Positions 411 through 32,651 of a stretch of 34,531 nucleotides of DNA are shown here, piece after piece (position 1 is the stretch's first letter; every line of letters starts with the position of its first letter). This DNA is from a virus, in IMG/VR virus record IMGVR_UViG_3300027932_000003, positions 1 through 34,531 of that record; one strand, 5' to 3'. Below the pieces are notes generated by a model, which had not been told where the DNA came from, did not search any database, and saw nothing but the letters and a program-made list of their open reading frames with translations. A program made the position numbers and the translations under genes.

Positions 411-1289
411 TTTGTAATATAAAATTTGCAAATTCAAACTTTGGAAATTTGTAATAAATGTTAATTTGTGGATATTAATAACTACTAACTATAATATTAT
501 AATTTATAATTTGGAGGGAACCAAACCCACAATTTAAAGTTTTTAGTTACTAAACATATTCATAATTTATTTAATTTCTTAATTCTAGCAAACCAAAACC
601 TCAATTTAAAGTTAGAAAGATACTAAACATATTGTTAATTTGTTATATTTATTCAAATCGTTATGTGTTGTTAGTTTTTTGCGTTTAGTGTTGGAGAAAT
701 TGGAAGTTTAGAAAGAAAAGTTTATATACCAGAAGAAAGCATTTAGTATTGTTAGTGGGCATTATCTTTCTTCTTATTATTATTTTTTTATATATATTAT
801 TATTAACATTTAAATTAGATAATTATATAATTATGAAGTTATATAATTATATAATTAGCTAACTACTAATTAGTAGTTTATAATATAATAATTATAGTTT
901 TGTAGTTCAAGTGTAAAATATAGTTTCTTTTTTTCTTTCAATTCAATAGAAGATTCTGTATACAGTTTGGATTTATATCAGTATTTTATGGTAAAAATTG
1001 TAAGGAGATTTAATAATTTAGAGAATATGGAAACTATCTAGTTATTCAATATAATAATTATATAGTTATGTAGTTAGTAGTTTATAATTAATAAATTATA
1101 GTCAAACCTAAAATAGGTTTTTTTAGGATTTTTCACCGTTAGGAAACAATTTATGTTTGGTGTTATGAGAGAAATTGGAGAGACAGAATTTACACGTTCT
1201 CTATAGAGAGAGGTGGCGATAAGAGTTAAGGAGATAGAGAATGTTTTATATTCGTCATATAATATATGATGATTTGTAGATGATAAAAA

Positions 1290-1478
1290 ATGACAAGAGT
1301 ACATAAATTAACTGCTGAGCAGAAAAAAATTTTAGAAAGAATGCATAATAGAATAGATTATATTATCAAAGCTTACAAGGAGTATTTGAATGCGTTAGCT
1401 GAATTTGATAGAACTGGTGTATTAAAAATTCATGGGAAAGTCATTTATGAAAGAAAATATAATGATCATCAAAAATAA
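1290..1478 (+). CDS. ITR-encoded hypothetical protein (62 aa), left copy
   Basis: ATG-initiated ORF with balanced helical-looking composition; upstream ttttatattcGTCATAt (1241..1260) about 40 nt before the ATG matches the genome-wide promoter pattern; identical copy in right ITR. Confidence 0.5.
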   Translation: MTRVHKLTAEQKKILERMHNRIDYIIKAYKEYLNALAEFDRTGVLKIHGKVIYERKYNDHQK

Positions 1479-1516
1479 CATAATTATAAGTCGAAAAATG
1501 AAGACATGAAAAGGTA

Positions 1517-1536
1517 GAGAAAGATTTAAATATGAG
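1517..1536 (+). promoter_or_regulatory. BRE/TATA promoter (gagaaagaTTTAAATAtgag) inside the ITR, driving 1567..1764
   Basis: Purine-rich stretch plus TTTAAATA box about 40 nt upstream of ATG 1567; same module recurs at about 1937..1954, 3241..3260 and 3968..3986. The mirrored copy (32996..33015) sits about 39 nt upstream of ATG 32966 on the minus strand. Confidence 0.5.
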
Positions 1537-1566
1537 TTTTTACATATATGATATTGTGAATAAAAG

Positions 1567-1764
1567 ATGATGAGCATAAAAACAAAAATAAGTAAAAAAC
1601 AAGCGAAAGAATTAGTTTCGCAGTTTTTGCAAAATTCAAATTATATTTCGTATAAAAGTTCAACTAACTTTTATTATTCATTTACTGATAAAAAAGCTTC
1701 AGTCGATATAAAGATTTATGAATTTGATAAGAAATATTTTTTAGAAATTATCACATTAAGTTAG
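1567..1764 (+). CDS. hypothetical protein (65 aa)
   Basis: ATG ORF preceded by the ITR-embedded TATA module; T-rich tail downstream. Confidence 0.45.
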   Translation: MMSIKTKISKKQAKELVSQFLQNSNYISYKSSTNFYYSFTDKKASVDIKIYEFDKKYFLEIITLS

Positions 1765-1840
1765 TTTTTTAATTTTTTATTTCTATTTCTTATTTTTCTC
1801 ATAATTTGTTATTTTTTATTTTCTGCAATTATGTTAAATT

Positions 1841-1860
1841 TTTTTCAAGTTTGAGATAAT
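1841..1860 (+). repeat. T-tract + palindromic element, copy 1 (tttttCAAGtTTGAGAtaat)
   Basis: Recurring motif 3' of plus-strand genes; see also 2403..2425, 3893..3912, 13608..13629, 17214..17237. Confidence 0.4.
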
Positions 1861-1987
1861 ATTACTAAATATAGAGAAATTGTGTGTTGTATAGTCTAAT
1901 GATAAAAATAACGTAAGATATAAAGGTAAAAGTATAAAGAAAACTTTAAATATGAGAATGAAGATATGTATATTGGTGAAAAGAAAA

Positions 1988-2302
1988 ATGAACACACAAA
2001 AAGATACACAAAAAGAAGTTGAGCAAAAGATAGGCGAAATTTTATATAGGGCAAGACAAGAAGGAGAAGCTTTTTTAGTTACTTTAACATCTGAGCAATT
2101 AAAGAAGTCTGGTTTTGAAGAGGATAATGATTTCTTTAATTTTAGCAATGTAGACATTTATATAATTTATGACGGCGAATACAAAATTAAATATATATTT
2201 GACAATGATCCTAGCAATTTTATGTATGAAAGTAAAATAGAAATTGGTGGGTTAAAGGAGTTCATAGAAGTTATTAAAAAATATCTAGAAGTTTCAGAGT
2301 AA
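1988..2302 (+). CDS. hypothetical protein (about 104 aa)
   Basis: ORF track starts at ATG 1952, which lies inside the TATA box (ctttaaatATGag). The first ATG at the expected 36-43 nt spacing is 1988, so I place the start there; same frame and stop. Confidence 0.5.
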   Translation: MNTQKDTQKEVEQKIGEILYRARQEGEAFLVTLTSEQLKKSGFEEDNDFFNFSNVDIYIIYDGEYKIKYIFDNDPSNFMYESKIEIGGLKEFIEVIKKYLEVSE

Positions 2303-2425: not shown

Positions 2426-2492
2426 ATTCATGACTAACATTTATTGAGAGAAACATAAATATGTCATAAATATAAAAGAAAATCGATATATT

Positions 2493-3017
2493 ATGAATAT
2501 AGTTTTGAGAGAATTGAATAAAGAAAAATTTAATATAAATATCACTGCATGGTTAGATATTGATAATGATATTCAAAGTTGTTATACAAATTTTAAAGAA
2601 ATTACGATAGTTACAATAATTCAAATGATTTCTGAAATTGTAGAAAAAGATGGCTGGGATTTACAATATTTTGAGAAAGATGAAGAAGAAAAATTATTTA
2701 ATGCATTTATGAAAAACTCTAAAATTACAGTACGGCTAAATAAAAAGATAGATGAATTGAATTATGATTTTAAAGAAACTATTGTTGAATTTGATTTTTC
2801 AGAAAGTGAGAAAAAGAAAATTGCAGAAATATATTTGAGTAATATACTTAATGAATATCGTTATTTAAATGACTGTATTTTGGAAAATTTAGCAGACAAA
2901 GATATTAATTCGATTTCAGAAGCTTTAAGTAGTGAAGTTTATCAATTATTAAGTTCTGATGAGATAAAAGCAAAATTTAAGGAAAAGATAGAGAAAATTA
3001 ATACTGAAAAAGTATAG
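2493..3017 (+). CDS. hypothetical acidic protein (174 aa)
   Basis: ATG ORF; promoter cataaatatGTCATAaatataaaag at about 2451..2478. Confidence 0.55.
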   Translation: MNIVLRELNKEKFNINITAWLDIDNDIQSCYTNFKEITIVTIIQMISEIVEKDGWDLQYFEKDEEEKLFNAFMKNSKITVRLNKKIDELNYDFKETIVEFDFSESEKKKIAEIYLSNILNEYRYLNDCILENLADKDINSISEALSSEVYQLLSSDEIKAKFKEKIEKINTEKV

Positions 3018-3194: not shown

Positions 3195-3293
3195 ATAAAT
3201 TTTCACTAAAAATATGGCGTAAGCTACAAAGATAAAAGTTTAGAGAAAACTTTAAATATAAGTTTAGACATATGTTATATTGAGGTAAGAAGA

Positions 3294-3461
3294 ATGAAAG
3301 AAGTAAAAGTTGGAAATTCGAGATATTATATAAGTTCAAGAGATGATGAGATAAGTGTAATACATGAGTTAGTTCAAAAAGGTTACTCCATAAGTCAAAT
3401 AGCTAGTTTGTTGAATATTTCAGAAAGAAAAATTAAAAAATACTTAGAAGATTGTTGGTAA
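3294..3461 (+). CDS. small helix-turn-helix DNA-binding protein (55 aa)
   Basis: Hand-translated: MKEVKVGNSRYYISSRDDEISVIHELVQKGYSISQIASLLNISERKIKKYLEDCW; GYSISQIASLLNISERKIKKYL is a typical HTH; TATA module at 3241..3260 and gaggt 8 nt upstream of the ATG; missed by the ORF track. Confidence 0.45.
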   Translation: MKEVKVGNSRYYISSRDDEISVIHELVQKGYSISQIASLLNISERKIKKYLEDCW

Positions 3462-3912: not shown

Positions 3913-4014
3913 TTATTTCTAAACTGGAGGAATTAAAAAAGCGTAGGATAGAAACGTAAAACTGTAGAGAAAACTTTATATATAAGTTTTTGCATATTAG
4001 ATATTAGTGATAAC

Positions 4015-4284: not shown

Positions 4285-4476
4285 TTATTTTAATTCTCTA
4301 ATTAAATCTTCTATCTCATAAATAATATCTTCTATTTTTTCAATTTTTTCTTTTTCAAATTCATGTTCTTCATAGTTCTCAATAAGTTTCATACTTTCTT
4401 CTAGTTTTTCTTTTGCATTTTGTAATTCTGTAATTGCAGATTCTAAAGCTGATATTATTTCATTGTAATCTATCAT
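4285..4476 (-). CDS. hypothetical acidic coiled-coil protein (63 aa)
   Basis: ATG ORF with aagaggtg upstream; last gene of a leftward gene string. Confidence 0.45.
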   Translation of the reverse strand: MIDYNEIISALESAITELQNAKEKLEESMKLIENYEEHEFEKEKIEKIEDIIYEIEDLIRELK

Positions 4477-4479: not shown

Positions 4480-4746
4480 TTACACCTCTTTTATTCTTTT
4501 CCAAACCTTTCCAATTGTTACACTTATATCAATTGACATTACAGAAAACCAAATTTCAAAATTTAATAGTTTATTGTTAATTTCTAAATAGCCAGCAATT
4601 TTATTTTTATTTTTTGTATAAAATATTATTCTTGGTTTTTCGTTAAAAATAAAAGCTTTATTTAGTAGATTTAAAATATCTTCTTCTCTCATATTTTCAA
4701 TTTTGTTTTTTGTTTTTTCCATTTGCTCCAAAAATTTTTCACTCAT
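4480..4746 (-). CDS. hypothetical protein (88 aa)
   Basis: ATG ORF; own promoter tttttatatGTCATAtaatac on the minus strand at about 4765..4790. Confidence 0.5.
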   Translation of the reverse strand: MSEKFLEQMEKTKNKIENMREEDILNLLNKAFIFNEKPRIIFYTKNKNKIAGYLEINNKLLNFEIWFSVMSIDISVTIGKVWKRIKEV

Positions 4747-4798
4747 GTTTTCACAATTACTGTTGTATTATATGACATATAAAAAGATTTTTATTTTT

Positions 4799-5416
4799 TC
4801 AGAATAAAGAGCCAAAACATTTCGCTTTAAACTCACAGGCTTTACATAGATAATTATTCGCGCCAGGTATAGTTTTATAATCTTGTAATTTCATAAATTC
4901 TTTAAATTTCTTAATCCAGTCAATTGCTTTTTGCAGATATGTTCCAATTATAGTTTTATTTATTTGGAATTGTTTAACTTCTTTATTTATTCTATTTAAA
5001 TATATGATATAGACATTATCAATTTTATAGTTTTGTTGTTGTAATAAGTAATAGTAAATTGAGACTTGGTAAAGATGATATTCTTTGATATTAAAGTAAT
5101 TACTTGTGATAGTTTTTAGTTCTATAAGATCATTATTGCAAATTAAGTCAATTCTGCCTGATATTTTTAATCCTTCAATTTCGCCTTTTACTTCAACTTC
5201 AGATTTACAGCCTAGTTTTTCGACAAAATAATTTTCTATTCTCTCGTGATGTTGTTCTCCTAGGTCAAGGCTAATTTCATTTACTGCTTTCTCAAACTCA
5301 AATTTTCTACTAAAATAGCTTTTTCTAAAGCAAATTCCAATTTCGCTAGGAAATATTGTATTCTCTGGATATTTCATTTTGAAGCTTTGTTTTACAAATT
5401 CTTCATAATTTGTCAT
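4799..5416 (-). CDS. Cas4-like / RecB-family nuclease (205 aa)
   Basis: GRIDLI (motif II), IELK (motif III), [11 protein letters not shown] (QxxxY) and C-terminal C-x2-C-x5-C ([10 protein letters not shown]) plus an N-terminal Cys; aggtgg upstream of the ATG; follows the ATPase gene, as in the conserved rudivirus SSB-helicase-nuclease operon. Confidence 0.7.
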
Positions 5417-5418: not shown

Positions 5419-6726
5419 TTAACCACCTAAATTACTAAATCTCATTAAGTTTATTATTCTATTACAAATTTCTTCATTTTGTACTTTTCCAATTTGTAAA
5501 TCTATGTCTAATGCCTGTAATAGAATTTGAATATCGATACTTTGCTCTTGTCTTCTGGATTCTAAATTTTCGCAATTTACATAGTTATGAATACTATTTA
5601 TCTTCTGTTGAATTAATTCAATTAATGCTTTTAAAATTGAAGGATAAAGAACTCTTGCATTTATAATTTTATCGTAAGTTTTCTTAATTGCTAATTGAAT
5701 AATATGAATTCTATCTAATATTGCAGAAGTGAAAATTTCATAATTTTGTAGATAGTCTTCTAAATCTGGAGTTACTAATTTATTAATTGTATATGCATAT
5801 GGATTTCCAGCGTAAATAATTGGAATACATTTTTGTATAGTTGCTGATTTTGATTCTGTTCCAGCTCCTCTTGTCCAAATACAATTTTCAATTCCAGTTG
5901 ATAGAGTTGAATTTATAGTATTTAGTTCTTTTGTTGAAAAACCATCTTTCCAATTTTGAATTTCATCAAATATCAAACCGTTTGATAGAAATACAGCTCC
6001 ATACATATTGTTTCGAGCATCATATACCAAATTGGCATAAGTTGGAGCTTCCGTGTAATATCTAAAATTGAAAACTTCTTGTAAAATCATGAAAGTTGTA
6101 GTTTTTCCAGTTCCTCTATTAGAAATTTCAATATAATTTATTTGTCTTTTGGTAATTGGAGATTTGAAAAGTGGGAATAGTCTTGGAAGAAAGAGAAATA
6201 TATCATTTATTTCCATTTTAGTCGGGTCATATCCAAAACTTTGCAATAAAAGTGCATAAGTTGAATATTCTGAATTTGCTAATTCAAATAATTCTTTTGC
6301 AATTTCATAATTGTTGGGTGGCTCAATTGAATAAATATCATAAATACGCCAACCTTCTATACCTTTTCTAATTTTGACAAACATGTAACTTGTAATTAAA
6401 TTATAGAAATTTTCAGGATTATCAGCTATAAAATGTGGATCGAAATTTGCAGTAAAACCATTTTGAAATTTTGCTATAACTTCATCATCTTTTACTTTAA
6501 ACTGTATAATTTTAGAGATAAATTTCACTTCATCATTAAAAAGCAAATAAGATTGAAAATATTGTTGATCAATTCCGCGTTTGTAAGCTTTTAAAATTTC
6601 AATTTTCTTCCTTTCTTCAATTTGTTTTCCAGAGAGAATTATATTTAAAACTCTTTCTGTATCTCTTGGATTATAAAAAAAAGAATGAGATTTTATTTTT
6701 TCAAGAAGTTGATTTGAACTACTCAT
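5419..6726 (-). CDS. P-loop ATPase, putative helicase (435 aa)
   Basis: Walker A NRGTGKTT; size and position between the SSB-like and nuclease genes. Confidence 0.7.
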
Positions 6727-6751
6727 AAAAAAAATGATAACTTATGACGTT

Positions 6752-7165
6752 TTAAAATTCGTCTTCAACATTCTTTTTCTCTTTCTTTTTCTGTGTTTTT
6801 TCCTCCTTTTGGCTTGATTTTTGTTTTTCTTCTTCTTCTTCTGTGTCTATTTCTTCTTCTTGAACAGCATTATTATTCCTTGGCGTAAATTTTACATATT
6901 CGTTTAATAAGTCAGCATATTTATTTAAGAATTCTGAAATTAATCTTAAATCTTCAGCATCATTTGCGGTTATTCCAAGTTGTTTTCTAAAATTATTAGC
7001 AGAATGGATAGTCATTGAGTATCTAACTTTTCCGTCTTGTGGTATTGCATTTAACTGTACAACTATTCTTTTTAGACCTTTGATTTTTAAAATTCTACTG
7101 GCTATTTTATTATTTTCTTTAGCTTGTTTACCTAACTCATCTATTATTTCCTTCAAACTTGCCAT
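6752..7165 (-). CDS. putative ssDNA-binding protein with acidic C-terminal tail (137 aa)
   Basis: Acidic tail EEEIDTEEEEE; first gene of the leftward operon; promoter aaatatGTCATAttataag on the minus strand at about 7184..7208. Function inferred from operon context, not from a motif. Confidence 0.5.
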   Translation of the reverse strand: MASLKEIIDELGKQAKENNKIASRILKIKGLKRIVVQLNAIPQDGKVRYSMTIHSANNFRKQLGITANDAEDLRLISEFLNKYADLLNEYVKFTPRNNNAVQEEEIDTEEEEEKQKSSQKEEKTQKKKEKKNVEDEF

Positions 7166-7265
7166 CTTTTTCGCCTTATTAATAACTTATAATATGACAT
7201 ATTTATATATTTATAAAAGTACAAGCCATGATATTTAGAAGTTTAAAAAAAGATGAAAAAAATAT

Positions 7266-7538
7266 TTAAATTAACTTAAAGAATATAGATCTTATTAATT
7301 TAGATACTTTCATATTATATTTATTTGCTAATTCTTCAAGTTTTTGATAATATAATTCATCAATTGTGAAAAAAACACGCTCATCATAAATTTCACTGAT
7401 TTCAATTTCTTTAAATTCTTTTTGAGAATTTAGAATTTTATCTATTTCTTGTTTTATTGTCTCTCTTTTCTCATAAAAAAGATTTTTATACTTTGATGGT
7501 ATACGTAATTCGATATACTTATTTCTTTGCTTTTTCAT
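7266..7538 (-). CDS. hypothetical protein, possible ribbon-helix-helix fold (90 aa)
   Basis: C-terminal half RVFFTIDELYYQKLEELANKYNMKVSKLIRSIF fits a strand-helix-turn-helix (RHH) pattern; divergent from Rep across a shared 70-bp promoter region. Confidence 0.4.
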   Translation of the reverse strand: MKKQRNKYIELRIPSKYKNLFYEKRETIKQEIDKILNSQKEFKEIEISEIYDERVFFTIDELYYQKLEELANKYNMKVSKLIRSIFFKLI

Positions 7539-7581
7539 AATTTTAGATATTTTCAGGCATTATATAAACATGACATATACA

Positions 7582-7593
7582 TTTAAATGTCAG
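7582..7593 (+). promoter_or_regulatory. Rep promoter: TTTAAATGTCAG (TATA followed directly by GTC)
   Basis: TATA box abutting GTC about 20 nt upstream of the Rep start codon. Confidence 0.5.
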
Positions 7594-7609
7594 GTTTTCA
7601 ATTGCATAT

Positions 7610-7954
7610 GTGAACGGTAAAAAAGTTTTTAGCTATCATTTTCTTTATGTTTACACGTATTTTATTACTATTGCTACAAATTATCACTATAATGATACGA
7701 CAAAAATCTATAAAAAATTCAGACAATATATTTATAATCATGATAAAAATTCTCATATTTTTTCAGTAAAAGAATATACAACAAGATTACATGGTCTACA
7801 TTATCATGTTTTAGTTTTCACGAATAAAAGGCTTGACTATTCCAGAGTTCATAAGCAAATGCCAAAACATTCAGATATAAATATTCAATTAGTTCCAAAA
7901 ACAAAAAATGATATAAAAAAAGTTTTAACTTATATGTTAAAAAATCAAAAATAA
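7610..7954 (+). CDS. HUH-superfamily rolling-circle replication initiator Rep (114 aa)
   Basis: LHGLHYHVLVF (HUH motif: H-hydrophobic-H followed by hydrophobics) and VLTYMLK (YxxK, Tyr at residue 108 by my count). The frame has no ATG before residue 84, so the start is GTG at 7610, right at the expected leaderless position. Confidence 0.75.
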   Translation: MNGKKVFSYHFLYVYTYFITIATNYHYNDTTKIYKKFRQYIYNHDKNSHIFSVKEYTTRLHGLHYHVLVFTNKRLDYSRVHKQMPKHSDINIQLVPKTKNDIKKVLTYMLKNQK

Positions 7955-8243: not shown

Positions 8244-8341
8244 TTCAATTTTATTATATGCAAATTACTTAGTAATAAAGTTTATGCAAAAAATCGAAAT
8301 ATATAAATATGTCATAATGTATGTTTATAAAATGAGGAAAA

Positions 8342-8503
8342 ATGATGGAGAAAGTTAAAAAGGAAAGAACAGTTTTCGGTATAAATATAGATAAAGAATT
8401 AAAAAGAAAATTAAAAGTATATTGTGCAAATAATAATATCACGCTAACAGAAGCAATTGAAGAAGCTTTAGAAGAATATTTACAGAAAAGGGGAACTAAA
8501 TGA
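8342..8503 (+). CDS. ribbon-helix-helix (CopG/Arc-like) DNA-binding protein (53 aa)
   Basis: Hand-translated: [53 protein letters not shown]; promoter atataaataTGTCATAat at 8301..8318; missed by the ORF track. Confidence 0.55.
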
Positions 8504-8646
8504 GAGTAATAACGTTTAAAGTTGAAGAAGATCTTTTGCAAAAACTTGATAAATATGCTATGAATCACAAGCTAAACAGATCTGAAGTAATTAGGCAAGC
8601 ATTAATGGAATTCTTGAGACCAAATACTACAACATATGATAGTTAA
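8500..8646 (+). CDS. ribbon-helix-helix DNA-binding protein (48 aa)
   Basis: Hand-translated: [48 protein letters not shown]; textbook RHH pattern; ATG overlaps the stop of the upstream RHH gene (ATGA). Confidence 0.55.
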
Positions 8647-8701: not shown

Positions 8702-8944
8702 TCATTTCTTTCTTTTTAATCTTTCAATTTCTGCTTTAAGTTCATCAATTTCATCATAAATATCTGCAAAGATATCATAAATTACTACATATATAATTGC
8801 AAAAATTCCAGATGCAAAAAATGTTGATATTATAACTATTGGCATATTTTTTACAAGAATTCCTAATGACATGACTATTAAAGCTAAAGACATTAAAGCT
8901 AAAAAAATTAAGAAAACTATTATTTCACGAAATTCTCTTTCCAT
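8702..8944 (-). CDS. two-TM membrane protein with C-terminal coiled-coil tail (80 aa), paralog A
   Basis: Two hydrophobic segments then ELKAEIERLKRKK; own promoter aaataaatttGTCAGaaaacg on the minus strand. Confidence 0.5.
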   Translation of the reverse strand: MEREFREIIVFLIFLALMSLALIVMSLGILVKNMPIVIISTFFASGIFAIIYVVIYDIFADIYDEIDELKAEIERLKRKK

Positions 8945-8956: not shown

Positions 8957-9232
8957 TCATTTTTCGTTTTCTGACAAATTTATTTCTTGTTTTCTCTCTC
9001 TTTTTAATCTTTCAATTTCTAGTTCAAGTTTATTAATTCTTGTATCTAAATCATCTATCAAATCTATTATCCAAGTAAAAATTATTGCCAACAAAATTGA
9101 TACAATTGCGGAATATAAAACTATATTTTGTAGATTTTTAGATAAAATTCCTTCAGAAAATATTAAAAGTATATTAAGTATTACAATTGAAAGCATTATA
9201 GAAATATATAACCTAAAAGCTAATTTGCCCAT
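8957..9232 (-). CDS. two-TM membrane protein with C-terminal coiled-coil tail (91 aa), paralog B
   Basis: Same architecture, ending KLELEIERLKRERK; own promoter tatatatttGTCAGataacg on the minus strand. Confidence 0.5.
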   Translation of the reverse strand: MGKLAFRLYISIMLSIVILNILLIFSEGILSKNLQNIVLYSAIVSILLAIIFTWIIDLIDDLDTRINKLELEIERLKRERKQEINLSENEK

Positions 9233-9287
9233 ACTTTGTCATTCTTATTTTTCGTTATCTGACAAATATATAAGTTTCTATTTCAAA

Positions 9288-9466: not shown

Positions 9467-9766
9467 TTAATGTATTTCATTATTAATTTCACCGCAAAAA
9501 ACTACAATATTAAACATATTTCTATTATATCTCCAATTTATTTTAATATATTGTGGATATTTAAAAGTTTTTATTATATATTTTAAAATTCCAGTTCCTT
9601 TTTTCTCATATCTTTGTTTTGTAATATTCATCCTAATTTTTATAGTTATTAAATTTTCATCTTCTAAAACTAAGTAATCGTAAACATTATCAAAGTAACG
9701 TATTTTCAACCAATCGAATAATTGAAGTGTATATTTTTTACATTCTAATTTGATGAATTCGTCCAT
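9467..9766 (-). CDS. hypothetical protein (99 aa)
   Basis: ATG ORF; promoter atttaattGTCAAattatg on the minus strand. Confidence 0.5.
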   Translation of the reverse strand: MDEFIKLECKKYTLQLFDWLKIRYFDNVYDYLVLEDENLITIKIRMNITKQRYEKKGTGILKYIIKTFKYPQYIKINWRYNRNMFNIVVFCGEINNEIH

Positions 9767-10002
9767 GTTTTAATTTTCATAATTTGACAATTAAATAATT
9801 TTTTGTTACTTTACGTATAGTATAATATAGAATATGCGGAATTAGAAATTATAACAAAAATTACAACTCAGCATATATATTATATAATTTATATAGTTTT
9901 TTCTTTAAATGATGACTCAATTTCATCAACTTATATACATTATATTACATATACGACGTGAAAATTTATATTGTAGAAATTAAAATTTATAATTGACCAA
10001 AA

Positions 10003-10518: not shown

Positions 10519-10707
10519 TTAATCATTATCATCAATTTTTGTTTCTATATACTCATAATTTGTTTTACTTATTCTTTTACAATCACTAATTTTTACATTA
10601 GGATGATGTTTTTTCAAATGTGTAATCATAGCTTTTCTAGTTCTCGTTAAATGTTGACAAATTGGACATTCAAATAAAAAGATACCCATAGTGTTTTTTA
10701 GTGTCAT
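10519..10707 (-). CDS. C2H2 zinc-finger protein (62 aa)
   Basis: CPICQHLTRTRKAMITHLKKHH = C-x2-C-x12-H-x4-H. Confidence 0.6.
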   Translation of the reverse strand: MTLKNTMGIFLFECPICQHLTRTRKAMITHLKKHHPNVKISDCKRISKTNYEYIETKIDDND

Positions 10708-10725
10708 GACGTTTAAAAGCTTAAT

Positions 10726-24456: not shown

Positions 24457-24933
24457 CTATAATTTACAAAATACAAATTCTCTATTATCATCAGTTATAA
24501 AAGTTAGAATTGTTCCATATAATTTTTTCATTAACTCAAAGCGGTTTTCAGTCCAGTCATGAATAGCAATACAATATTGTTTATACTTTTGTAATTCTTC
24601 AATTTTCAGATTCTTTTCACAGCCTTCACAATCCATAACTAAAATGTCAGTGTCAGGATATTGATTTCCAGTCCATTCCCCATTTATCTCAACTTTATCA
24701 CAAATATTAAATTCTTTACAAACTTTTTCCTTAAATCTCTTGTTTAACTCATCACTTTTTTCAAAACCAATTACTTTTTTAGCATTCTTAAGAAGAAAAT
24801 ACAAAGCTGAACTTCCACAATCATTTCCGATTATCGTAATTGTCTTATCTTTTACGTCTAATTTTCCATAAGCTAAATCAAATTCATGCCAATAGCAACA
24901 TTCCAATTTACAAAAATAATCTTTATAATCCAT
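24457..24933 (-). CDS. SAM-dependent methyltransferase, FkbM-like (158 aa)
   Basis: TIIGNDCGSSALYFL ... KKVIGFEKS resembles FkbM-family motif I and the acidic end of beta-2; DILVMDCEGCE further on. Confidence 0.5.
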   Translation of the reverse strand: MDYKDYFCKLECCYWHEFDLAYGKLDVKDKTITIIGNDCGSSALYFLLKNAKKVIGFEKSDELNKRFKEKVCKEFNICDKVEINGEWTGNQYPDTDILVMDCEGCEKNLKIEELQKYKQYCIAIHDWTENRFELMKKLYGTILTFITDDNREFVFCKL

Positions 24934-24953: not shown

Positions 24954-25883
24954 TTAGGAACTAATAACTTCAAATAATGCATAAACTGTACATTTTCCAG
25001 TTGCCCAGGCATAAATATTTGAAGGATTATTTACATGAATTTCTATTGAATCATTTTGTAAAATCGGGAAGTTATTATATAGATTATTGCCAATATAAAC
25101 GATATAATTACTGAGATTTTGGAGAATTATTCTTACAGTTTCTATGGATGGGCCTGTGTACAAAGGTGAAGGAGTAGTAGAAACATCTAATTGTAGACCT
25201 TCTATAGTTGGTGGACTTAAGTATAAACCAAGTTTATTAATTGTATTTGTCAAACCGACAGTTGCTAAATATACATATGTCAAAGTATAAGCTAAAGAAT
25301 CAGCAACAAAATAAATAGCACTTTGTAACGAAATTCCTAATCTCTTAGCTATTGAATTTATAGTTTCATAAAATGAAATATAGAAATTCTGTAAATCTTC
25401 TTTTATAATTGTCCTAGATTGTTCAATATTTGAAATTAAATAATTAACAACATTATAAATTGTTTCATATAGAGCAATTGTATCTTTCTCTAAAATTGAA
25501 GTGGCAGTCGGAACGGCAACTACAATTTTTTCATAAATTTCTTCTGGTAATTTAACAATTGAATAATAAAGTTGTTGATTTGAGTATAATATTGAATTTA
25601 TTTGTTGATTTGCAGTTGCTATAAAACCTGCAATGTATATTGGATCAAGTTCAGTTAGCACAGGCTGACCAGAAACGTAAACCTCATCATAGAAAAATCC
25701 AGAATCTGCAGTAATTGAATTTGGAACTGTAAGATTACCGTTTTTCAAAATTGAAGTAACTGCATTTCCGCCAGTTTCATAAAGCTGAATTAGCAAAAGT
25801 GATGCAGTATTCCACATTGAAGATGTTAATCTCTGAAACGGTGACGCAAGTAATTCGCTAATTGAAGTATATGTAACGCTCAT
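24954..25883 (-). CDS. hypothetical protein (309 aa)
   Basis: ATG ORF; no motif recognised. Confidence 0.6.
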   Translation of the reverse strand: MSVTYTSISELLASPFQRLTSSMWNTASLLLIQLYETGGNAVTSILKNGNLTVPNSITADSGFFYDEVYVSGQPVLTELDPIYIAGFIATANQQINSILYSNQQLYYSIVKLPEEIYEKIVVAVPTATSILEKDTIALYETIYNVVNYLISNIEQSRTIIKEDLQNFYISFYETINSIAKRLGISLQSAIYFVADSLAYTLTYVYLATVGLTNTINKLGLYLSPPTIEGLQLDVSTTPSPLYTGPSIETVRIILQNLSNYIVYIGNNLYNNFPILQNDSIEIHVNNPSNIYAWATGKCTVYALFEVISS

Positions 25884-26014
25884 ACTATTTTTATCCCATC
25901 ATGACCTAAAAAACTATTCACAACTAATTCATAATATTATGAATATAGCATGTCCTCATTGATCTCATCAGAAACCAAGATAACTAATATTTGTCATAAC
26001 TTGAGAAGAATATT

Positions 26015-26620
26015 ATGAAAATCTTCACATTTGCAGGGTTTACAAAACATCTAAAGGAATTGGATTTTGATTATGTTGTCTTGGATAAAACTTTTAATGA
26101 TATAACTCCCCAGTTAATCGAAAAATTTAGAGATAAGATAATCTGGAATGAAACAAATAGTGATATAAGAGCCATAAGGATAGCTAAACAATTACTAAAA
26201 ATTCTAGAAATAGCAAAAGATCAAGATGATGACATATTTGCTATAGTAGATAGTGATCTAATTGTTCCAAATTTGAGAAATATTGACCCTAACGATAAAA
26301 TTTTAACTTTGTGCTATTGGCTTTATTACGACTGGGCTAATGAAATTAGACCATTTTGTTCAGGAACAAATTACATTTTTAATAAAAAACATATTGTAAT
26401 TTTAGAAACTGCAATAAATGTTTATTTAGAAAAAGAATATTATAAAGAATTTTCAGTGGATATATTTCTACATGACCATATTTTGCATATAAACGTCTTG
26501 AAGTTAGGAACTATCCATTATGTAAAAACTCCAGAGGGAGAGAAAAAAATGGAATTTACATTTGAAAATATAAATCAAGTGTTTAAACATATTCCAGAAT
26601 TTGTTTTAATATCTTGGTGA
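26015..26620 (+). CDS. hypothetical protein with DxD-like motif (201 aa)
   Basis: ATG ORF; promoter tatttGTCATAacttgag; IVDSDLIV could be a DxD nucleotide-sugar motif (weak). Confidence 0.5.
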   Translation: MKIFTFAGFTKHLKELDFDYVVLDKTFNDITPQLIEKFRDKIIWNETNSDIRAIRIAKQLLKILEIAKDQDDDIFAIVDSDLIVPNLRNIDPNDKILTLCYWLYYDWANEIRPFCSGTNYIFNKKHIVILETAINVYLEKEYYKEFSVDIFLHDHILHINVLKLGTIHYVKTPEGEKKMEFTFENINQVFKHIPEFVLISW

Positions 26621-26729
26621 GGTCAAATATGGAGTTCTTTAATTCAGAATTGAGACCGAACCAGTCCAAACTTAAAGTTAAAGACATTAAAATGTCATTT
26701 TTTAAATTTTGAATTAAGGACGTGGTAAA

Positions 26730-27812
26730 ATGAGTGGTGATATTTTATTGCAAACTCCAATTTATTACGTTTATCCACAACATCATGATGTTTCTTTTAA
26801 GTTTGTAGCAAAAGAACATATAAAAATGCTAAAAGAAAAATATACAGTTTACGAAATTCCTGCTTTATCATTTTATCAATTTACTCCTTTCAAATATCCA
26901 ATTTCAATTATTCATCCATTCTTTTATTCAATGTGGCATTGGGGTAACGTTGAATTTTCATTCTTTGAACAATATAGATCTAAAGTTAGTCAAATAATAG
27001 GAGTTGAAGTAGCTGACAGTGATAGAATTTCAGAAAAATTTATAGATTATGCAAATAATTATGCAGATAGACTAATTGGAAATTCTGAATGGACATTAAA
27101 CGCTTTTAAAAATTCTGGACTAAAAATTCCAATTTTTAAAGTTGTTCATAATTTTAATGAGAGATTATTGGCGAAAAATGATGAATTAAAAGTTGATGAA
27201 CAAGTTAAATATATTGAAAAAGTAAAGAAAGAGAAAAATATAAAACTAGTAATGATATCGCTTTGGCATTCTGATTACAGAAAAGGAGCTGATTTATTTC
27301 ACGTAATTGTAAAAGAAATACAAAAAGAAAGAGATGATATTTATTTTCTAGTCAAATCAGGCGGGCCGAGGACAGATTTTCAAGACCTCAAAATGTTTAA
27401 CCTAACAGGAAATACAGATTTTGATAATATCGTAAAAATGTATAGAATTTCTGACTTGTATTTACTAACTTCAAGAGGCGGAAGTTTTGAATTAAACGGT
27501 TTAGAAGCTTTTGTATCAAAAATTCCAGTTGTAGCAACTAAAGGAGGAGCATGGCAAGAGTATTTTCCTTCACAATTGAAAGATTTATTAATTGATAGTT
27601 GTGATTATCCAACAGTTTTACCAGGAAATCCAATTCATATAGGAAAAGGAGTGGAAATGTGCATAAATGACGCTATAGATAAAATATTAGAAGTTTTAGA
27701 TAAATTAGATGAATATAAGGCAAAAATTGAGGAGAACTATAATTTTTGGCTAGAAAATTTTAGTTATGAAACTGTAAAAAAACAATTGTTTAACACATTA
27801 GAAAAATCTTAA
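26730..27812 (+). CDS. putative GT-B glycosyltransferase (360 aa)
   Basis: TSRGGSFELNGLEAFVSKIPVVAT resembles the C-terminal sugar-donor region of GT4 enzymes; aaggacgtggt upstream of the ATG. Confidence 0.55.
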   Translation: MSGDILLQTPIYYVYPQHHDVSFKFVAKEHIKMLKEKYTVYEIPALSFYQFTPFKYPISIIHPFFYSMWHWGNVEFSFFEQYRSKVSQIIGVEVADSDRISEKFIDYANNYADRLIGNSEWTLNAFKNSGLKIPIFKVVHNFNERLLAKNDELKVDEQVKYIEKVKKEKNIKLVMISLWHSDYRKGADLFHVIVKEIQKERDDIYFLVKSGGPRTDFQDLKMFNLTGNTDFDNIVKMYRISDLYLLTSRGGSFELNGLEAFVSKIPVVATKGGAWQEYFPSQLKDLLIDSCDYPTVLPGNPIHIGKGVEMCINDAIDKILEVLDKLDEYKAKIEENYNFWLENFSYETVKKQLFNTLEKS

Positions 27813-27838
27813 ATTGGTCATAAAACTCAAACTGTAAC

Positions 27839-29035
27839 ATGGAATTTAAAAGAAAAAGTTCAGGCATAATAAAAAGTTTTAGCTCATTAGACATTTTTTC
27901 TATAAACCTACTTTACATGGGAATTTTAAGCGGTATAAGTTATCCTCTTTTTGTCTCAAGTCTTCTAAAATCTGTAAATTTACTATTTGCAATTTTGATA
28001 GGTGCAATTTTTGGAATTCCGTTACTTGCAATGTATTATTTACTGACTAAAAAAATTCCGCTTAATGGAGGAGATTATGCGTACATTAGATCTTCATTTT
28101 CTCCAAAATTCTATACAGTTTTTGGAATTTCGCTCTGGTTAATTTATGTATTTTCAGCACCAGTTTTATCAAACCTTGTATTGTTAAATTTCAATATTCC
28201 AATATTCGATAAGTTTTTAATTTCAGAACTATTACTTGGGACTGCGTTACTTAGTGTTAGCAAAAAAACAATTTATGCTTATATTGTTGACGCTATCGCA
28301 ATTTTACAAATAATCGTTTCGCTAATCTTGCCAATTTCAAGTTTCCATTTTCAAATTCAAAATTTTACAATATCCAATACTCTATTATCGGCATTATTAT
28401 TTGATTTATCTATGTTTTTATTTCTAAATGCAATTAGTTACATAGCAGGAGAAACAAAAAACATAAACAAAAATGCGAAAATCGGATATTTTGTAAGTTA
28501 TTTAGTAGTTACAATTTTAGCAGTATTGGACAGTTATTCAAATCTAAATATATTATTTCTACTAATGCCGATATGGTTTATGAGTTATATTTTTGTTACT
28601 TCTATGATTCAGAGTAGACTAGTTCAAAATTTAGCATTTGATAAAATCTTACCTGAAAAATTTGCAAAAATAACGCCTAATGCTTTACTGTTAATCTTTA
28701 TCGCTGATACAATTACAAACGTTTTAGAAAATCTTCTAAATTTTACAATTTCATTTGGTCTTGATGGCCTGTTATTTATTTTCTGGAACTTTATAATTGT
28801 TAGTTTTGCATTTCTGAAATTGACAAATAAAAAACTATTATTTTCAATAGTAATGATTAGTCTAATTTTACAGATCTTCTTATTCTTTTATTTAGGATTA
28901 CAAAATAGCGTATTTTATAATTTTGTAATTGAGGGAAACATACTATATACAATATTAAGAATATTGATAATGCCAATTGTTGGAGGAATTATTTACTTAT
29001 TGAGGAGAAAAGTGATAAATGTTGAATTAAAATGA
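27839..29035 (+). CDS. polytopic membrane protein, possible flippase/transporter (398 aa)
   Basis: At least 10 hydrophobic segments by eye; sits between a glycosyltransferase gene and 29032..29934, overlapping the latter by 4 nt. Confidence 0.6.
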   Translation: MEFKRKSSGIIKSFSSLDIFSINLLYMGILSGISYPLFVSSLLKSVNLLFAILIGAIFGIPLLAMYYLLTKKIPLNGGDYAYIRSSFSPKFYTVFGISLWLIYVFSAPVLSNLVLLNFNIPIFDKFLISELLLGTALLSVSKKTIYAYIVDAIAILQIIVSLILPISSFHFQIQNFTISNTLLSALLFDLSMFLFLNAISYIAGETKNINKNAKIGYFVSYLVVTILAVLDSYSNLNILFLLMPIWFMSYIFVTSMIQSRLVQNLAFDKILPEKFAKITPNALLLIFIADTITNVLENLLNFTISFGLDGLLFIFWNFIIVSFAFLKLTNKKLLFSIVMISLILQIFLFFYLGLQNSVFYNFVIEGNILYTILRILIMPIVGGIIYLLRRKVINVELK

Positions 29036-29934
29036 AATTGATTTTTGGATTAAGTTCAACATTATCATATATTTTAAAAACAAATTTTCCAATTTTAGTT
29101 AATCAACTAAGATTTAAAAGAAAAACATGGAAAAATGAAACATGGATTGATAGTGGCGGATATCAAATTATAATGCATAATCTAAAAATTTCTGTAAATG
29201 ATGTCTTGCAAAAGTATAAAAGTGTTAATGCTTACGCATTTTTTTCGCTTGATATTCCTAGCGTTTTTTCGCCAATTGATAAACGAAACTTTGAATATTT
29301 CGAATATCTATATACGAAAATTGAGTATATAGAAAAGATTATACCAGTTTTACATATTTATTCACTTCAAGATATAGATGAAGCAATTGATTTTTATAAA
29401 CAATACAGTTATTATTTTGCAATTGGTGGTATAATGACTTCTAGCAAAATGAAAGTTTTACAATATACATTTCCATGGGTTTATTATATAAAAAGAAAAG
29501 TTCCATATCTCCATATTTTAGGCATGTCATCTCCATATTTTTTACAAATTTTTAATAATATGCAAAGCATGGATACCGCAATTTGTTCAACAATTTCAAC
29601 ATTTAAAGAAATAATTTGGTTTGATAGTTCTAGGAGATATGTTGGAAATATGAAAACAAAAAGGGAAAGATATAAAATTACAAAAGAAGAAAAAGAACAA
29701 TTATTTGAATTTTTAGACAAACATAACTTTCAATTTAACTATGATTTAAGTAATAGAAATATTCTAGAACTTATAAATGCATATATGTTATTATATAATA
29801 ATTGGAAAATTAAGAATAAATATACAGAATATGCAGAAAAACTTAGAAAAATGGGACTAGATAGTTTGACAAGTGAGTTAATTAGAAATTATAAAATTGC
29901 AAATGAAATATTAAAACAGAAAAGAGAAAAATAG
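29032..29934 (+). CDS. hypothetical protein (300 aa)
   Basis: ATG ORF translationally coupled to the membrane protein gene. Confidence 0.55.
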   Translation: MKLIFGLSSTLSYILKTNFPILVNQLRFKRKTWKNETWIDSGGYQIIMHNLKISVNDVLQKYKSVNAYAFFSLDIPSVFSPIDKRNFEYFEYLYTKIEYIEKIIPVLHIYSLQDIDEAIDFYKQYSYYFAIGGIMTSSKMKVLQYTFPWVYYIKRKVPYLHILGMSSPYFLQIFNNMQSMDTAICSTISTFKEIIWFDSSRRYVGNMKTKRERYKITKEEKEQLFEFLDKHNFQFNYDLSNRNILELINAYMLLYNNWKIKNKYTEYAEKLRKMGLDSLTSELIRNYKIANEILKQKREK

Positions 29935-30503: not shown

Positions 30504-30513
30504 TTTTATTACC

Positions 30514-31236
30514 TCAATCTGTTTTATTTTTCCTTGGTCTTGGATGTGTAATTAAATAATATTTATTTCCGCTTAACATAACCGAATTTTCACCATGATC
30601 TGGAGATTTAATAACAAATACAGTAGCGTCTTGTGGATGTACTAAAAACGTAGAACCAGGTGTTGAAAATAAATCAGTAGCTAATACAGTATTTGAAAAT
30701 TGTATTTCATGATTATAAATTGTTAAACTACTTACATGATTGAGACTAAGATTTAATTCACCATTTGGCGGTGGAACTTCATAAATTTCTAGATTTCCTT
30801 GATTATATGTCAAATGAAATTCGTATAATTGACCTTTTATGAAATAATCATAAACTTCTATTGAATAATTGCTATAAGAAATTAATAATTCTTTTGAACT
30901 AAGATTTAAAAGTTCTAGTTCTTTTAATATAATGTTTTTCATATCTTCTAAACTTCTTGTAATTTTATTTCTTCTATAGACAGATATTATTGGCGATACT
31001 GGCGTATAATATATTCCTTTTACTTCATCCAATTGATCATCAATATTTCTAAAACATCCATTAAATGTCATACCGCTTCTTGAAACATATTTAGAACAAT
31101 TAATAAAATGATTAGATATTAACGAAATTTTGGTAACTTGACCATTTGTATGTTTCAACATAAAAACGATTGGCAAATATTTAATTTGTTTTAAAATTTT
31201 AACTTCATATTTTTTAACTTGATCTTCTTGAGACAT
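30514..31236 (-). CDS. hypothetical protein (about 240 aa)
   Basis: ORF track start 31248 is GTG; ATG 31236 is preceded by aggtga and by tttaaatttGTCATAtagc. Confidence 0.55.
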   Translation of the reverse strand: MSQEDQVKKYEVKILKQIKYLPIVFMLKHTNGQVTKISLISNHFINCSKYVSRSGMTFNGCFRNIDDQLDEVKGIYYTPVSPIISVYRRNKITRSLEDMKNIILKELELLNLSSKELLISYSNYSIEVYDYFIKGQLYEFHLTYNQGNLEIYEVPPPNGELNLSLNHVSSLTIYNHEIQFSNTVLATDLFSTPGSTFLVHPQDATVFVIKSPDHGENSVMLSGNKYYLITHPRPRKNKTD

Positions 31237-31322
31237 ACGATCTATCACCTGTAAAATATCATATGCTATATGACAAATTTAAAGCATTCGAAAAGTCTCG
31301 ATTTAGAAAAATATAAAAAAAA

Positions 31323-31607
31323 TTATTTTTCATAATATTCTATTGTAATTCTATCAATTGGAAAATCATATCCTGTTATCATCTCTAAAGTTTTCCTAGG
31401 CTCTCTGACTAGTAAGCAAAATAATTCATCAAAATTTTTAACTCCAAAATCTTCATAAATACTACTACTGAAATCTCTAACTTCTCTGTTAATTTCAGTC
31501 TCGATTAAACAATATTTTTGTTCATAATCTGTAATAAAATAACTTTCTTCTTCTGATAAAATAATTCTAAAACCATAGTTATATTTTTCAACTATTATAT
31601 CAACCAT
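31323..31607 (-). CDS. hypothetical protein (94 aa)
   Basis: ATG ORF with aggtgaagg upstream; second gene of a two-gene unit. Confidence 0.5.
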   Translation of the reverse strand: MVDIIVEKYNYGFRIILSEEESYFITDYEQKYCLIETEINREVRDFSSSIYEDFGVKNFDELFCLLVREPRKTLEMITGYDFPIDRITIEYYEK

Positions 31608-31623
31608 TTTTCCTTCACCTCAT

Positions 31624-31920
31624 TTAACAATTAATTGTCCAGTCTCTATTTCCATATTTTTCCTCAAACTCTTGGTATTTTCTTTGTTTTAATAATTTTA
31701 TAATTTTTTTAACTTCTTCTTCTGTAATTTTTAAACAATTCCTTCCATTATAATGGCTAATTGTAATTGTCGGAGTAACTTTGTCACGGTTTACTGTTTC
31801 AACTTGAACATAATATTCGCCATTTTTTTCAACAATATAATAATAATAATCTTCAAACTTAGTTTTTACTTTTTTAGAATAAATTATCTTCCTATCTTCT
31901 TGATTTGAACTTTCGGACAT
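31624..31920 (-). CDS. hypothetical protein (98 aa)
   Basis: ATG ORF; promoter tttttatatttGTCATAaaag then aggtga. Confidence 0.5.
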   Translation of the reverse strand: MSESSNQEDRKIIYSKKVKTKFEDYYYYIVEKNGEYYVQVETVNRDKVTPTITISHYNGRNCLKITEEEVKKIIKLLKQRKYQEFEEKYGNRDWTINC

Positions 31921-32009
31921 TTAACTCATCACCTGTAAATTAACATAACTTTTATGACAAATATAAAAATATCTTAAGCTTTCGATTTATAAAAAAGAAA
32001 AAAATAATA

Positions 32010-32474
32010 TTAATCTTTGATAAATTCGATTCTATAATTTTTCTTCAAAAGATAATATACTTTAAAATAGAAAGGATCAGCGTGACTGACAATAGATTCT
32101 GGTACCATCTTCAGTAAAGCAATGATATCTTCTGGAACATTATATTCATTAGAATAGTAAATGATTACTTTATTTTCTTTGCCTTCAAATCTATGCCAGA
32201 AATACGCTCTTTTGTAATATATGATATAATTATGAAACCCATTATTCCACTCATCATATGCTATATACTTTATATTATCATCATTAACAAAAATTACAGA
32301 ACTAATATATCGATCATTTACAACATTTCTTAATTTTTCAAATAGATATTCCTTAAGCTCCTTATAATTTGCTTTTTGTATTTCATTCCATAACTGAATA
32401 ATTTCATATCTCAAAATCTCTAATTGATTAATTATTTGATTTATTTTTTCTAATTGTTGATCAAATCTATTCAT
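32010..32474 (-). CDS. hypothetical protein (about 154 aa)
   Basis: ORF track start 32480 is GTG; ATG 32474 follows ttttaaatttGTCATAatac. Confidence 0.5.
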   Translation of the reverse strand: MNRFDQQLEKINQIINQLEILRYEIIQLWNEIQKANYKELKEYLFEKLRNVVNDRYISSVIFVNDDNIKYIAYDEWNNGFHNYIIYYKRAYFWHRFEGKENKVIIYYSNEYNVPEDIIALLKMVPESIVSHADPFYFKVYYLLKKNYRIEFIKD

Positions 32475-32651
32475 TTTCACTTCTCACCAAATCAATTCAC
32501 GTATTATGACAAATTTAAAAATGTCTTTACTTTTCGATTTGCAAACTTTCTAAAATATTAGTAATTTTATTTAAAGCCTGAGAAAAATTAAGCATGGAGA
32601 AAGAAAACAAAAAACAAAAAAATAAAAAATAAAGAATACGAAAGAAAAAAA

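Follow-up and report, generated by a model that had tools for sequence, protein, structure and literature searches.

A GTC element fused to the TATA box in a SIRV-type rudivirus genome: anatomy, lineage variants and possible readers

The IMG/VR virus record IMGVR_UViG_3300027932_000003, analysed here over its whole length of 34,531 bp (the window), displays a recurrent promoter signature in which a TATA-like box is directly followed by GTCA. The sequence TGTCA(T/A)A is very probably a promoter-proximal cis element, fused in register to the TATA box, and marks the principal class of transcription units in SIRV-type rudiviruses. The original prediction, made from the letters of the window, had named a GTC element as a feature of SIRV promoters. 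This is correct: in its summary of Kessler 2004, a 2017 review (PMC5569661) states that, in SIRV1 and SIRV2, the majority of promoters carry GTC downstream of their TATA box, which was proposed as a virus-specific cis element. The signature is thus the already described "GTC" element, rediscovered in a new genome. The gene-by-gene conservation of GTC, its exclusion from the early class and the switching of its tail are added here, and the tail switching provides a modestly new comparative angle on the factor that reads it.

The window is a complete linear rudivirus genome with 25% G+C and a perfect 1,539-bp inverted terminal repeat (positions 1-1539 and 32993-34531). Its core shares about 90% nucleotide identity with the Yellowstone viruses SIRV8 and SIRV9 (genus Usarudivirus), the closest in the phage collection, and its major capsid protein is 99% identical to their homologue. 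An identical genome was sought among the phage-collection records, none of which is identical to the window. Judged by these sequence identities and the inverted terminal repeat, the genome is that of a SIRV-type rudivirus, more precisely a Yellowstone-type usarudivirus.

The signature and its anatomy

The gene model combines open reading frames (ORFs) with homology to the SIRV8 annotation and includes 56 genes, of which 55 are unique. A site was defined as at least six A/T among eight bases, followed by GTCA, with the C located 15-45 nt ahead of a start codon; d denotes the distance in nt from the C of GTC to the start codon. Such sites precede 28 of the 55 unique genes, or 29 genes if the second copy of the inverted terminal repeat is counted. 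As about 13 of the remaining genes are internal to operons (same strand, gap of at most 32 nt), about two thirds of the transcription units are GTC-positive, and GTC is present in the majority of the promoter regions of this genome.

This signature is far beyond chance. The same definition gives 2.6 matches at random positions, 2.3 at internal in-frame ATGs and 1.9 +/- 1.4 (maximum 9) in shuffled upstream regions, so that 28 sites observed against two or three expected correspond to a binomial P of about 1e-22. The word TGTCATA occurs 17 times in the genome versus 6.7 +/- 2.3 in shuffles, and 15 of these occurrences lie within the 60 nt upstream of genes, on the sense strand, a 147-fold excess of density. 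Motif discovery upstream of the start codons with a shuffled comparison, the check proposed with the original prediction, also found the enrichment. Indeed, an unbiased k-mer search of the 55 upstream regions ranks TGTCA first (23 regions versus 3.0 expected, Bonferroni p 3e-12), with GTCATA (18 versus 1.1) and TGTCATA (15 versus 0.7) as runners-up, the Bonferroni p values spanning 3e-12 to 6e-14. The Shine-Dalgarno word GGTGA ranks next, after the GTC words.

The original prediction had counted more than 15 gene starts, fewer than the 28 unique promoters found here. All of the 17 examples that it cited (eight on the plus strand and nine on the minus strand) have an A/T-rich box abutting GTC upstream of an ORF start. 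Minor corrections concern the words at some of them: 1241-1260 reads CGTCATA, 7582-7593 reads TGTCAGG, the minus-strand sites near 8960 and 9260 read TGTCAGA and the one near 9790 reads TGTCAAA. The site placed near 31280 exists, at 31269-31275.

GTCA is invariant at all 28 unique sites, and the eight bases ahead of GTC include at least six A/T in each of them. In an alignment of 26 sites, T directly precedes GTC in 23, and GTCA is followed by T in 20 and then by A in 21. The conserved core, T-GTCA-T/A-A, is therefore longer than three bases. As the consensus directly before GTCA reads tTatATtT, the TATA octamer can be placed at -9 to -2 relative to the G, with the T at -1, in a fixed register. 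The element is single-copy, asymmetric and found in sense orientation only; an inverted TGAC partner occurs solely in three divergent promoter pairs. The stretch upstream of the octamer is moderately purine-rich (purine content 0.69), with A at -3 in 20/28 sites and G at -6 in 9/28. The sites thus show the organization of an archaeal core promoter, with an A/T-rich octamer at an inferred distance of about 27 nt from the start and, ahead of this octamer, a purine-rich TFB-recognition element (BRE).

The distance d spans 18-35 nt and is bimodal, with 12 sites at 18-22 and 16 at 26-35. The short-spacing group has its mode at 19-20 nt, which fits leaderless mRNAs. Among the 16 sites of the other group, five show an AGGTG/GGTGA Shine-Dalgarno match and two a GAGG/AGGCG purine run, nine having neither. 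In the SSV1 record, mapped starts are annotated 22-25 nt after box A, in agreement with the 19-20 nt mode. With these SSV1 distances used as a ruler, the G would lie at about -22, and the element would thus occupy about -22 to -17 of the transcription start, between the TATA box and the melting region.

In two of the three divergent pairs, 7568-7595 and 16632-16663, abutting or overlapping TATA boxes take up the space that a normal upstream TFB-recognition element would need. The promoters of the third pair (10694-10719) are interleaved: they share a perfect palindrome, GTCATGAC (10703-10710), outside which each TATA box lies towards the gene of the other promoter, an arrangement kept in SIRV8, SIRV9, SIRV5 and isolate V3. 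Due to this interleaving, two pre-initiation complexes should exclude each other there.

The original prediction also held that the motif helps to choose gene starts, and this proved useful. Motif spacing, together with the comparison with SIRV2, favours the starts 10726, 10689 and 26730 over those implied by the SIRV8 annotation. They yield, respectively, a 335-aa glycosyltransferase, as SIRV2 ORF335, a 56-aa zinc-finger protein, as SIRV2 ORF55, and a 360-aa glycosyltransferase. In practice, the GTC motif is a reliable marker of transcription-unit starts in SIRV-type genomes and corrects at least three start codons here. The sites are listed below (coordinates, strand, TATA-like box and GTC word, gene or unit, d).

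1245-1260 (+): TTTATATTC then GTCATAT; gene 1290-1478 in the inverted terminal repeat, homologue of SIRV8 gp05 (ADG.17, viral antitoxin); d=33 to ATG
2454-2469 (+): CATAAATAT then GTCATAA; gene 2493-3017; d=27
4770-4785 (-): TTTTTATAT then GTCATAT; unit 4480-4746 / 4285-4476; d=27
6742-6757 (-): TTTTAAAAC then GTCATAA; ATPase-nuclease unit (5419-6726, 4799-5416); d=19
7192-7207 (-): TATAAATAT then GTCATAT; gene 6752-7165 (SIRV2 ORF131b homologue); d=30
7568-7583 (-): AATGTATAT then GTCATGT; gene 7266-7538 (weak ribbon-helix-helix match); d=33; back to back with 7580-7595
7580-7595 (+): CATTTAAAT then GTCAGGT; gene 7610-7954 (Rep, 117-like_vir); d=18
8302-8317 (+): TATAAATAT then GTCATAA; SvtR-aCcr1 unit (8345-8503, 8500-8646); d=31
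8969-8984 (-): AATAAATTT then GTCAGAA; gene 8702-8944; d=28
9257-9272 (-): TATATATTT then GTCAGAT; gene 8957-9232; d=28
9782-9797 (-): TATTTAATT then GTCAAAT; gene 9467-9766; d=19
10704-10719 (-): CTTTTAAAC then GTCATGA; C2H2 zinc-finger gene, start revised to 10689; d=18, same as SIRV2 ORF55
10694-10709 (+): TTTTTTAGT then GTCATGA; glycosyltransferase gene, start revised to 10726; d=20
11759-11774 (+): TTTATGTAT then GTCATAA; gene 11797-11922; d=26
12473-12488 (-): TTGATATTT then GTCATAT; gene 12250-12447; d=29
15842-15857 (+): TATATATTT then GTCATAA; gene 15874-16332 (SIRV2 ORF154 homologue); d=20
16632-16647 (-): TTTAAATTT then GTCATAT; gene 16327-16608; d=27
16648-16663 (+): CATATATAT then GTCATAA; Holliday-junction resolvase gene 16678-17064; d=18; TATA box abuts that of 16632-16647
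16963-16978 (+): TATAAAAAT then GTCATAA; gene 16997-17206, site within the 3' end of the resolvase ORF; d=22
20797-20812 (+): AATAAATTT then GTCATAT; gene 20829-21644; d=20
21695-21710 (+): CTTATTTTT then GTCAACT; gene 21726-23474 (SIRV2 ORF564 homologue); d=19; palindrome 21665-21682 ahead
25899-25914 (-): GTTTTTTAG then GTCATGA; unit 24954-25883 / 24457-24933; d=19
25984-25999 (+): CTAATATTT then GTCATAA; gene 26015-26620; d=19
26685-26700 (+): CATTAAAAT then GTCATTT; glycosyltransferase gene 26730-27812; d=33 to the ATG at 26730
27808-27823 (+): CTTAAATTG then GTCATAA; permease / tRNA-transglycosylase unit (27839-29035, 29032-29934); d=19
31268-31283 (-): TTTAAATTT then GTCATAT; gene 30514-31236 (AcrIIIB1 homologue); d=35; GGTGA Shine-Dalgarno
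31952-31967 (-): TTTATATTT then GTCATAA; gene 31624-31920; d=35; GGTGA Shine-Dalgarno
32504-32519 (-): TTTAAATTT then GTCATAA; gene 32010-32474; d=33
33272-33287 (-): copy of 1245-1260 in the right inverted terminal repeat; gene 33054-33242

Two side observations concern genes of this list. The right-arm genes 30514, 31624 and 32010 (upstream regions 31236-31300, 31920-31985 and 32474-32540, minus strand) share a longer upstream module, AAATCGA...TTTAAATTT-GTCATA, followed by TTTACAGGTGA at 30514 and 31624 and by ATTTGGTGA at 32010, which suggests a promoter duplicated together with its leader. Furthermore, tblastn detects a 56% identical homologue of gene 7266-7538 at SIRV2 9477-9722 and SIRV1 6057-6302, without an annotated coding sequence in RefSeq, between the Rep gene and the ORF131 gene.

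Conservation in other viruses and promoter classes

Five usarudiviruses, SIRV1 and SIRV2 were scanned with a single ORF caller and a single definition. In these seven SIRV genomes, 33-50% of the genes lie behind the motif, and in each genome GTC ranks first among the trinucleotides that follow the TATA box (p 1e-10 to 1e-18). The element is found in SIRV1, and 22 genes of SIRV2 are GTC-positive. A gene-by-gene comparison of this virus with SIRV1/2 indicates that GTC is kept in 13 of 19 cases and that 10 of 11 non-GTC genes stay non-GTC (Fisher p 0.002). GTCATA is present in Usarudivirus, in Icerudivirus and in about 30 metagenomic rudivirus contigs from IMG/VR, with capsid identity down to 81%. 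The original prediction took the motif as support for the family assignment; the assignment holds on the genome and capsid identities given above, but GTCATA marks SIRV-type lineages and not all Rudiviridae.

No enrichment of TATA plus GTC was detected in SIFV, whose host is S. islandicus (2/68 genes), SMV1 (3/51), SSV1 (3/28) or STIV (2/31). SSRV1, which infects Saccharolobus solfataricus, shows it at 4/36 genes and is devoid of GTCATA. Because of these low counts, compared with 33-50% in the SIRVs, the element does not appear to be imposed by the host. For a host control, genome contigs were searched with the aCcr1 homologue, which retrieved mainly loci of Bathyarchaeia and Nitrososphaeria. 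A single 20-kb Stygiolobus chromosomal locus, the only Sulfolobales stretch obtained, gives one match in 24 genes, a sample too limited for a firm conclusion.

Other rudiviruses carry variants at the same place: TTAAATAT-GTAAGATT in SBRV1, where GTAAGA(TT) occurs 13 times versus 1.5 expected (Bonferroni p 7e-6), GTA/GTATTC in SRV (16 versus 5.2 expected), GTCCAC in ARV1 and a weaker TTAAAAAT-GTA in hoswirudiviruses. Promoters of orthologous genes (ATPase, ORF131 homologue, SvtR, ORF335) retain the same TATA box, GT and spacing, and the next 4-5 nt switch to the motif of the genus. For example, the orthologues of promoter 6742-6757 in SIRVs, SRV and SBRV1 retain TTTTAAAC plus GT at d=19, followed by genus-specific tails. 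In the accessible literature, searches for lineage-specific tails gave just one review sentence, which concerns the SIRV element. SSRV1, MRV1 and ARV3, which have the weakest post-TATA signal, are each annotated with a TFB homologue.

Could the motif be a functionless by-product of promoter duplication or local base composition? Paralogy is clear for some promoters, namely those of 8702/8957, the trio 30514/31624/32010 and the two terminal-repeat copies. However, at least 24 sites have unrelated flanks, the enrichment stands against four different nulls, the motif is strictly sense, and G, T, C and A are invariant while their neighbours vary. Moreover, the same spacing is retained at Icerudivirus orthologues despite diverged flanks. 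This explanation is strongly disfavoured and has hardly any probability left.

Within the genome, the data support the separation of three promoter classes: early/anti-defence, main GTC and structural. The early class comprises the GTC-less left-arm genes 1567, 1988, 3294 and 4015 and gene 32652, which share AGAGAAA-N2-TTTAAATA-T-GAG. Its promoters follow the pattern A(G/A)AGAAA-N2-TTTA(A/T)ATA-T-(G/A)AG, which matches the published early/anti-defence regulatory sequence and has no GTC, at these positions:

1516-1536 (+): early-class promoter
1936-1956 (+): early-class promoter
3242-3262 (+): early-class promoter
3966-3986 (+): early-class promoter
32996-33016 (-): early-class promoter

Their TFB-recognition element has an invariant G at -6 and an invariant A at -3, two positions that vary in the GTC class, as indicated above. 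Conversely, the GTC promoters do not have the early/anti-defence regulatory sequence (a strong BRE plus TTTAWATA with conserved flanks), as they lack the invariant G/A and the GAGTTT tail. The SIRV8 orthologues of the left-arm cassette genes are high-confidence members of the published early/anti-defence-motif class, and the Aca8 homologue (gene 3294-3461) belongs to this terminal early cassette. The SIRV8 orthologues of the GTC-positive terminal genes 1290, 30514 and 32010 appear solely in the low-probability sheet of the same publication. The published early/anti-defence-motif list has 11 genes for SIRV2, none of which carries GTC, versus 22 of the 43 other genes (Fisher p 0.0016). The guess that genes without GTC form a separate regulatory class is thus supported by the left-arm orthologues as well as by SIRV2.

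The GTC-positive units encode replication functions, regulators, glycosyl- and methyltransferases and several accessory genes. The structural genes without GTC are the capsid, egress-pyramid and ORF1070 genes and two further genes of the structural module; the tail-fibre promoter also lacks it. Several promoters of the structural module, with or without GTC, lie behind an 18-bp AT palindrome, ATACATWATATWATGTAT, which has six matches versus 0.83 expected and is conserved in SIRV1 and SIRV2:

9935-9952: AT palindrome
13126-13143: AT palindrome
15782-15799: AT palindrome
21665-21682: AT palindrome
25927-25944: AT palindrome
9875-9892: further match

The first five of these palindromes are intergenic and located roughly 40-75 nt upstream of one or both flanking genes (10003, 12705/13223, 14339/15874, 21726 and 24954/26015). 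This palindrome may be the operator of a late-gene regulator. An identical 23-nt module, CGAAAGATTTATATATTTCGAAA, occurs at 13176-13198 and 13656-13678 (+), ahead of genes 13223-13576 and 13704-13928; in this module, the inverted repeat CGAAA/TTTCG flanks the TATA box.

Possible readers of the element

The geometry of the element, with its strict TATA register, single copy, sense-only orientation and 19-20 nt mode to the ATG, argues for a role in the core promoter. Its distribution argues for a lineage-specific reader, since it is missing from other Sulfolobus viruses and its tail switches between genera. The reading that we favour, tentatively and at slightly below an even chance, is that the reader is a lineage-specific, probably virus-encoded, positive factor acting beside TBP and TFB. 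Such a factor would be made from the early, host-type promoters and would read the element while TBP and TFB occupy the TATA box. It would help or orient the assembly of the pre-initiation complex where the upstream TFB-recognition element is weak or, at back-to-back promoters, physically impossible. Transcription would start about 20-23 nt downstream of GTC, and host RNA polymerase would be switched from the early genes to the bulk of the genome. If true, a viral reader would reveal by what means a eukaryote-like transcription machinery is reprogrammed by a virus that has no RNA polymerase of its own.

Published biochemical data on SIRV1 speak for this proposal. When TBP, TFB and RNA polymerase were the sole factors supplied, many SIRV1 promoters were weak, among them promoter 56 in comparison with SSV1 T6, and the authors suggested virus-specific factors (Kessler 2006). 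The host protein Sta1 binds SIRV1 promoters 56, 134 and 399 (Kessler 2006). In the scan described above, the SIRV2 orthologues of promoters 56 and 399 are GTC-positive. Two decades after the element was described, no reader of GTC has been identified in the accessible literature.

One candidate is the 56-aa C2H2 zinc-finger protein (SIRV2 ORF55 family), tested as the reader because, among complete genomes, it is confined to the GTCATA genera. Its gene adjoins the capsid gene in nearly all GTCATA-type contigs and is absent from SRV, SBRV1, ARV1, SSRV1 and SMRV1. The classical C-x2-C-x12-H-x3-4-H signature is found in three ORFs of the window (10519-10689 on the minus strand, 11926-12225 and 13223-13576 on the plus strand). 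Other candidates are the products of 7266-7538 (weak ribbon-helix-helix match), 8345-8503 (SvtR), 3294-3461 (Aca8) and 9467-9766; the targets of SvtR include a GTC-less promoter. A half-site of a dyad operator was ruled out, inverted partners existing solely where two promoters diverge.

Several points weigh against a virus-encoded positive factor. In archaea, proteins that bind just after the TATA box are usually repressors. Perfect co-occurrence with the motif is seen for none of the viral candidates; four metagenomic contigs with GTCATA, for instance, lack the C2H2 zinc-finger gene next to the capsid gene. gp21/aCcr1 binds AGTATTA instead. In vitro, no binding to DNA was detected for SIRV1 Gp1, which is the short Aca8-type form; full-length SIRV2 Gp1 did bind a specific probe, but only above 10 uM and in the form of higher-order complexes. 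The placement at -22 is inferred from spacing to start codons, the host-chromosome control covers 20 kb, and no mutagenesis of GTC is reported in the accessible papers. Finally, an extract of uninfected S. islandicus improved transcription from SIRV1 promoter 56, which favours a host factor (Kessler 2006).

According to this latter explanation, which we hold unlikely but worth serious attention, the element is read by a host accessory factor that the virus lineage evolved to recruit, the candidates being a Sta1-like winged-helix protein and a TFB paralogue such as TFB2. Besides the effect of the extract, promoters 56, 134 and 399 retained Sta1 in pull-downs and SSV1 T6 did not. Sta1 also gives a footprint on the core promoter, and it stimulates transcription under limiting TBP or TFB. 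Its consensus, ATNT-N8-WNAT, overlaps GTCA at 10 of the 28 sites versus 4.9 expected, but this twofold overlap relies on a very degenerate pattern in AT-rich DNA. Furthermore, the published consensus does not include GTC, and promoter 134 (capsid gene), also bound by Sta1, is GTC-less in the SIRV1 sequence. Other viruses of the same hosts do not use the element, tails differ across rudivirus genera at orthologous promoters, and SSRV1, a virus of a Saccharolobus host, lacks GTCATA.

It is less probable still that TFB contacts the element directly, as an archaeal version of the eukaryotic BREd that would increase the affinity or polarity of the TBP-TFB-DNA complex with no further protein involved. 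BREd lies in the same place, begins with R-T and has the consensus RTDKKKK at -23 to -17. We know of no established archaeal equivalent. The fixed register right after the TATA box, the asymmetry and the single copy fit this proposal, as does the GT dinucleotide kept across rudivirus genera with different hosts. In the GTC class, the upstream TFB-recognition element is weaker and, in back-to-back pairs, occupied by the TATA box of the partner. However, GTCATA fits about three of the seven positions of RTDKKKK (in GTCATAW, only G, T and one K match), the GTA variants of SRV and SBRV1 fitting one position more. The strongest host-type promoters, those of the early viral class, carry GAGTTT at that position; highly expressed host genes are said to have the same TATA box and BRE as this class. 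Other Sulfolobus viruses show no enrichment, SIRV1 promoter 56, whose SIRV2 orthologue is GTC-positive, is weak with TBP, TFB and polymerase alone, and tail switching between viruses is hard to square with one conserved TFB.

An operator for a global repressor, viral or host, acting between the TATA box and the start and holding the main gene set down at some stage, is very unlikely. Archaeal repressors typically bind at this location, several small proteins of the ribbon-helix-helix, helix-turn-helix and zinc-finger types are encoded in the genome, and SvtR represses its own promoter, which is GTC-positive in SIRV1 and SIRV2. However, a single asymmetric 6-7-mer with no repeat or dyad is unlike the operators of dimeric ribbon-helix-helix or helix-turn-helix repressors, and the best target of SvtR, the ORF1070 promoter, is GTC-less here and in SIRV1/2. 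As the site is found in about 70% of transcription units across genera at a constant TATA register, a positive core element is more economical.

The proposal of a positive, lineage-specific reader can be extended to a rudiviral lineage code after the TATA box, which we consider a bold and rather unlikely generalization. This code would consist of a constant GT followed by 4-5 nt that vary with the lineage (GTCATA in SIRV-type viruses, GTAAGATT in SBRV1, GTATTC in SRV, GTCCAC in ARV1), the variable tail co-evolving with a specificity factor, either virus-encoded or acting via TFB, that would redirect host polymerase from early promoters to the main viral genes. If true, no sigma- or MotA-like switch of promoter specificity would have been described before in an archaeal virus. 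Tail switching at orthologous promoters gives a direct experimental handle on the reader.

Relation to known systems

The closest system is the element of SIRV1/2 described by Kessler et al. 2004 (J Bacteriol 186:7745; summarised in PMC5569661 and PMC1635249), in which GTC likewise directly follows the TATA box in most promoters. The present case differs by the genome, that of a Yellowstone-type usarudivirus, and by the longer core defined here, T-GTCA-T/A-A. The early/anti-defence regulatory sequence of rudiviruses (Bhoobalan-Chitty et al. 2024, PMC11065993), for which Aca8 was proposed as the controller, is also virus-specific, wrapped around the TATA box and class-defining. However, it concerns another gene set, is mutually exclusive with GTC, and combines a strong purine-rich TFB-recognition element with GAGTTT/AAGTTT after the TATA box.

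The GTC element resembles the eukaryotic BREd in its location directly downstream of the TATA box, its purine-T start and its asymmetry, BREd itself being read within the TBP-TFIIB-DNA complex. The sequence, however, fits only partly, and the viral distribution argues against a general preference of TFB. In bacteriophages, signatures of promoter classes are read by phage-encoded specificity factors, as exemplified by the MotA boxes of T4. The logic of these MotA-type systems is the same as that seen here, with host-type early promoters and a virus-specific mark beside a core element on the bulk of the genome. As they operate on a bacterial, sigma-based machinery, their likeness to the rudivirus is one of logic only.

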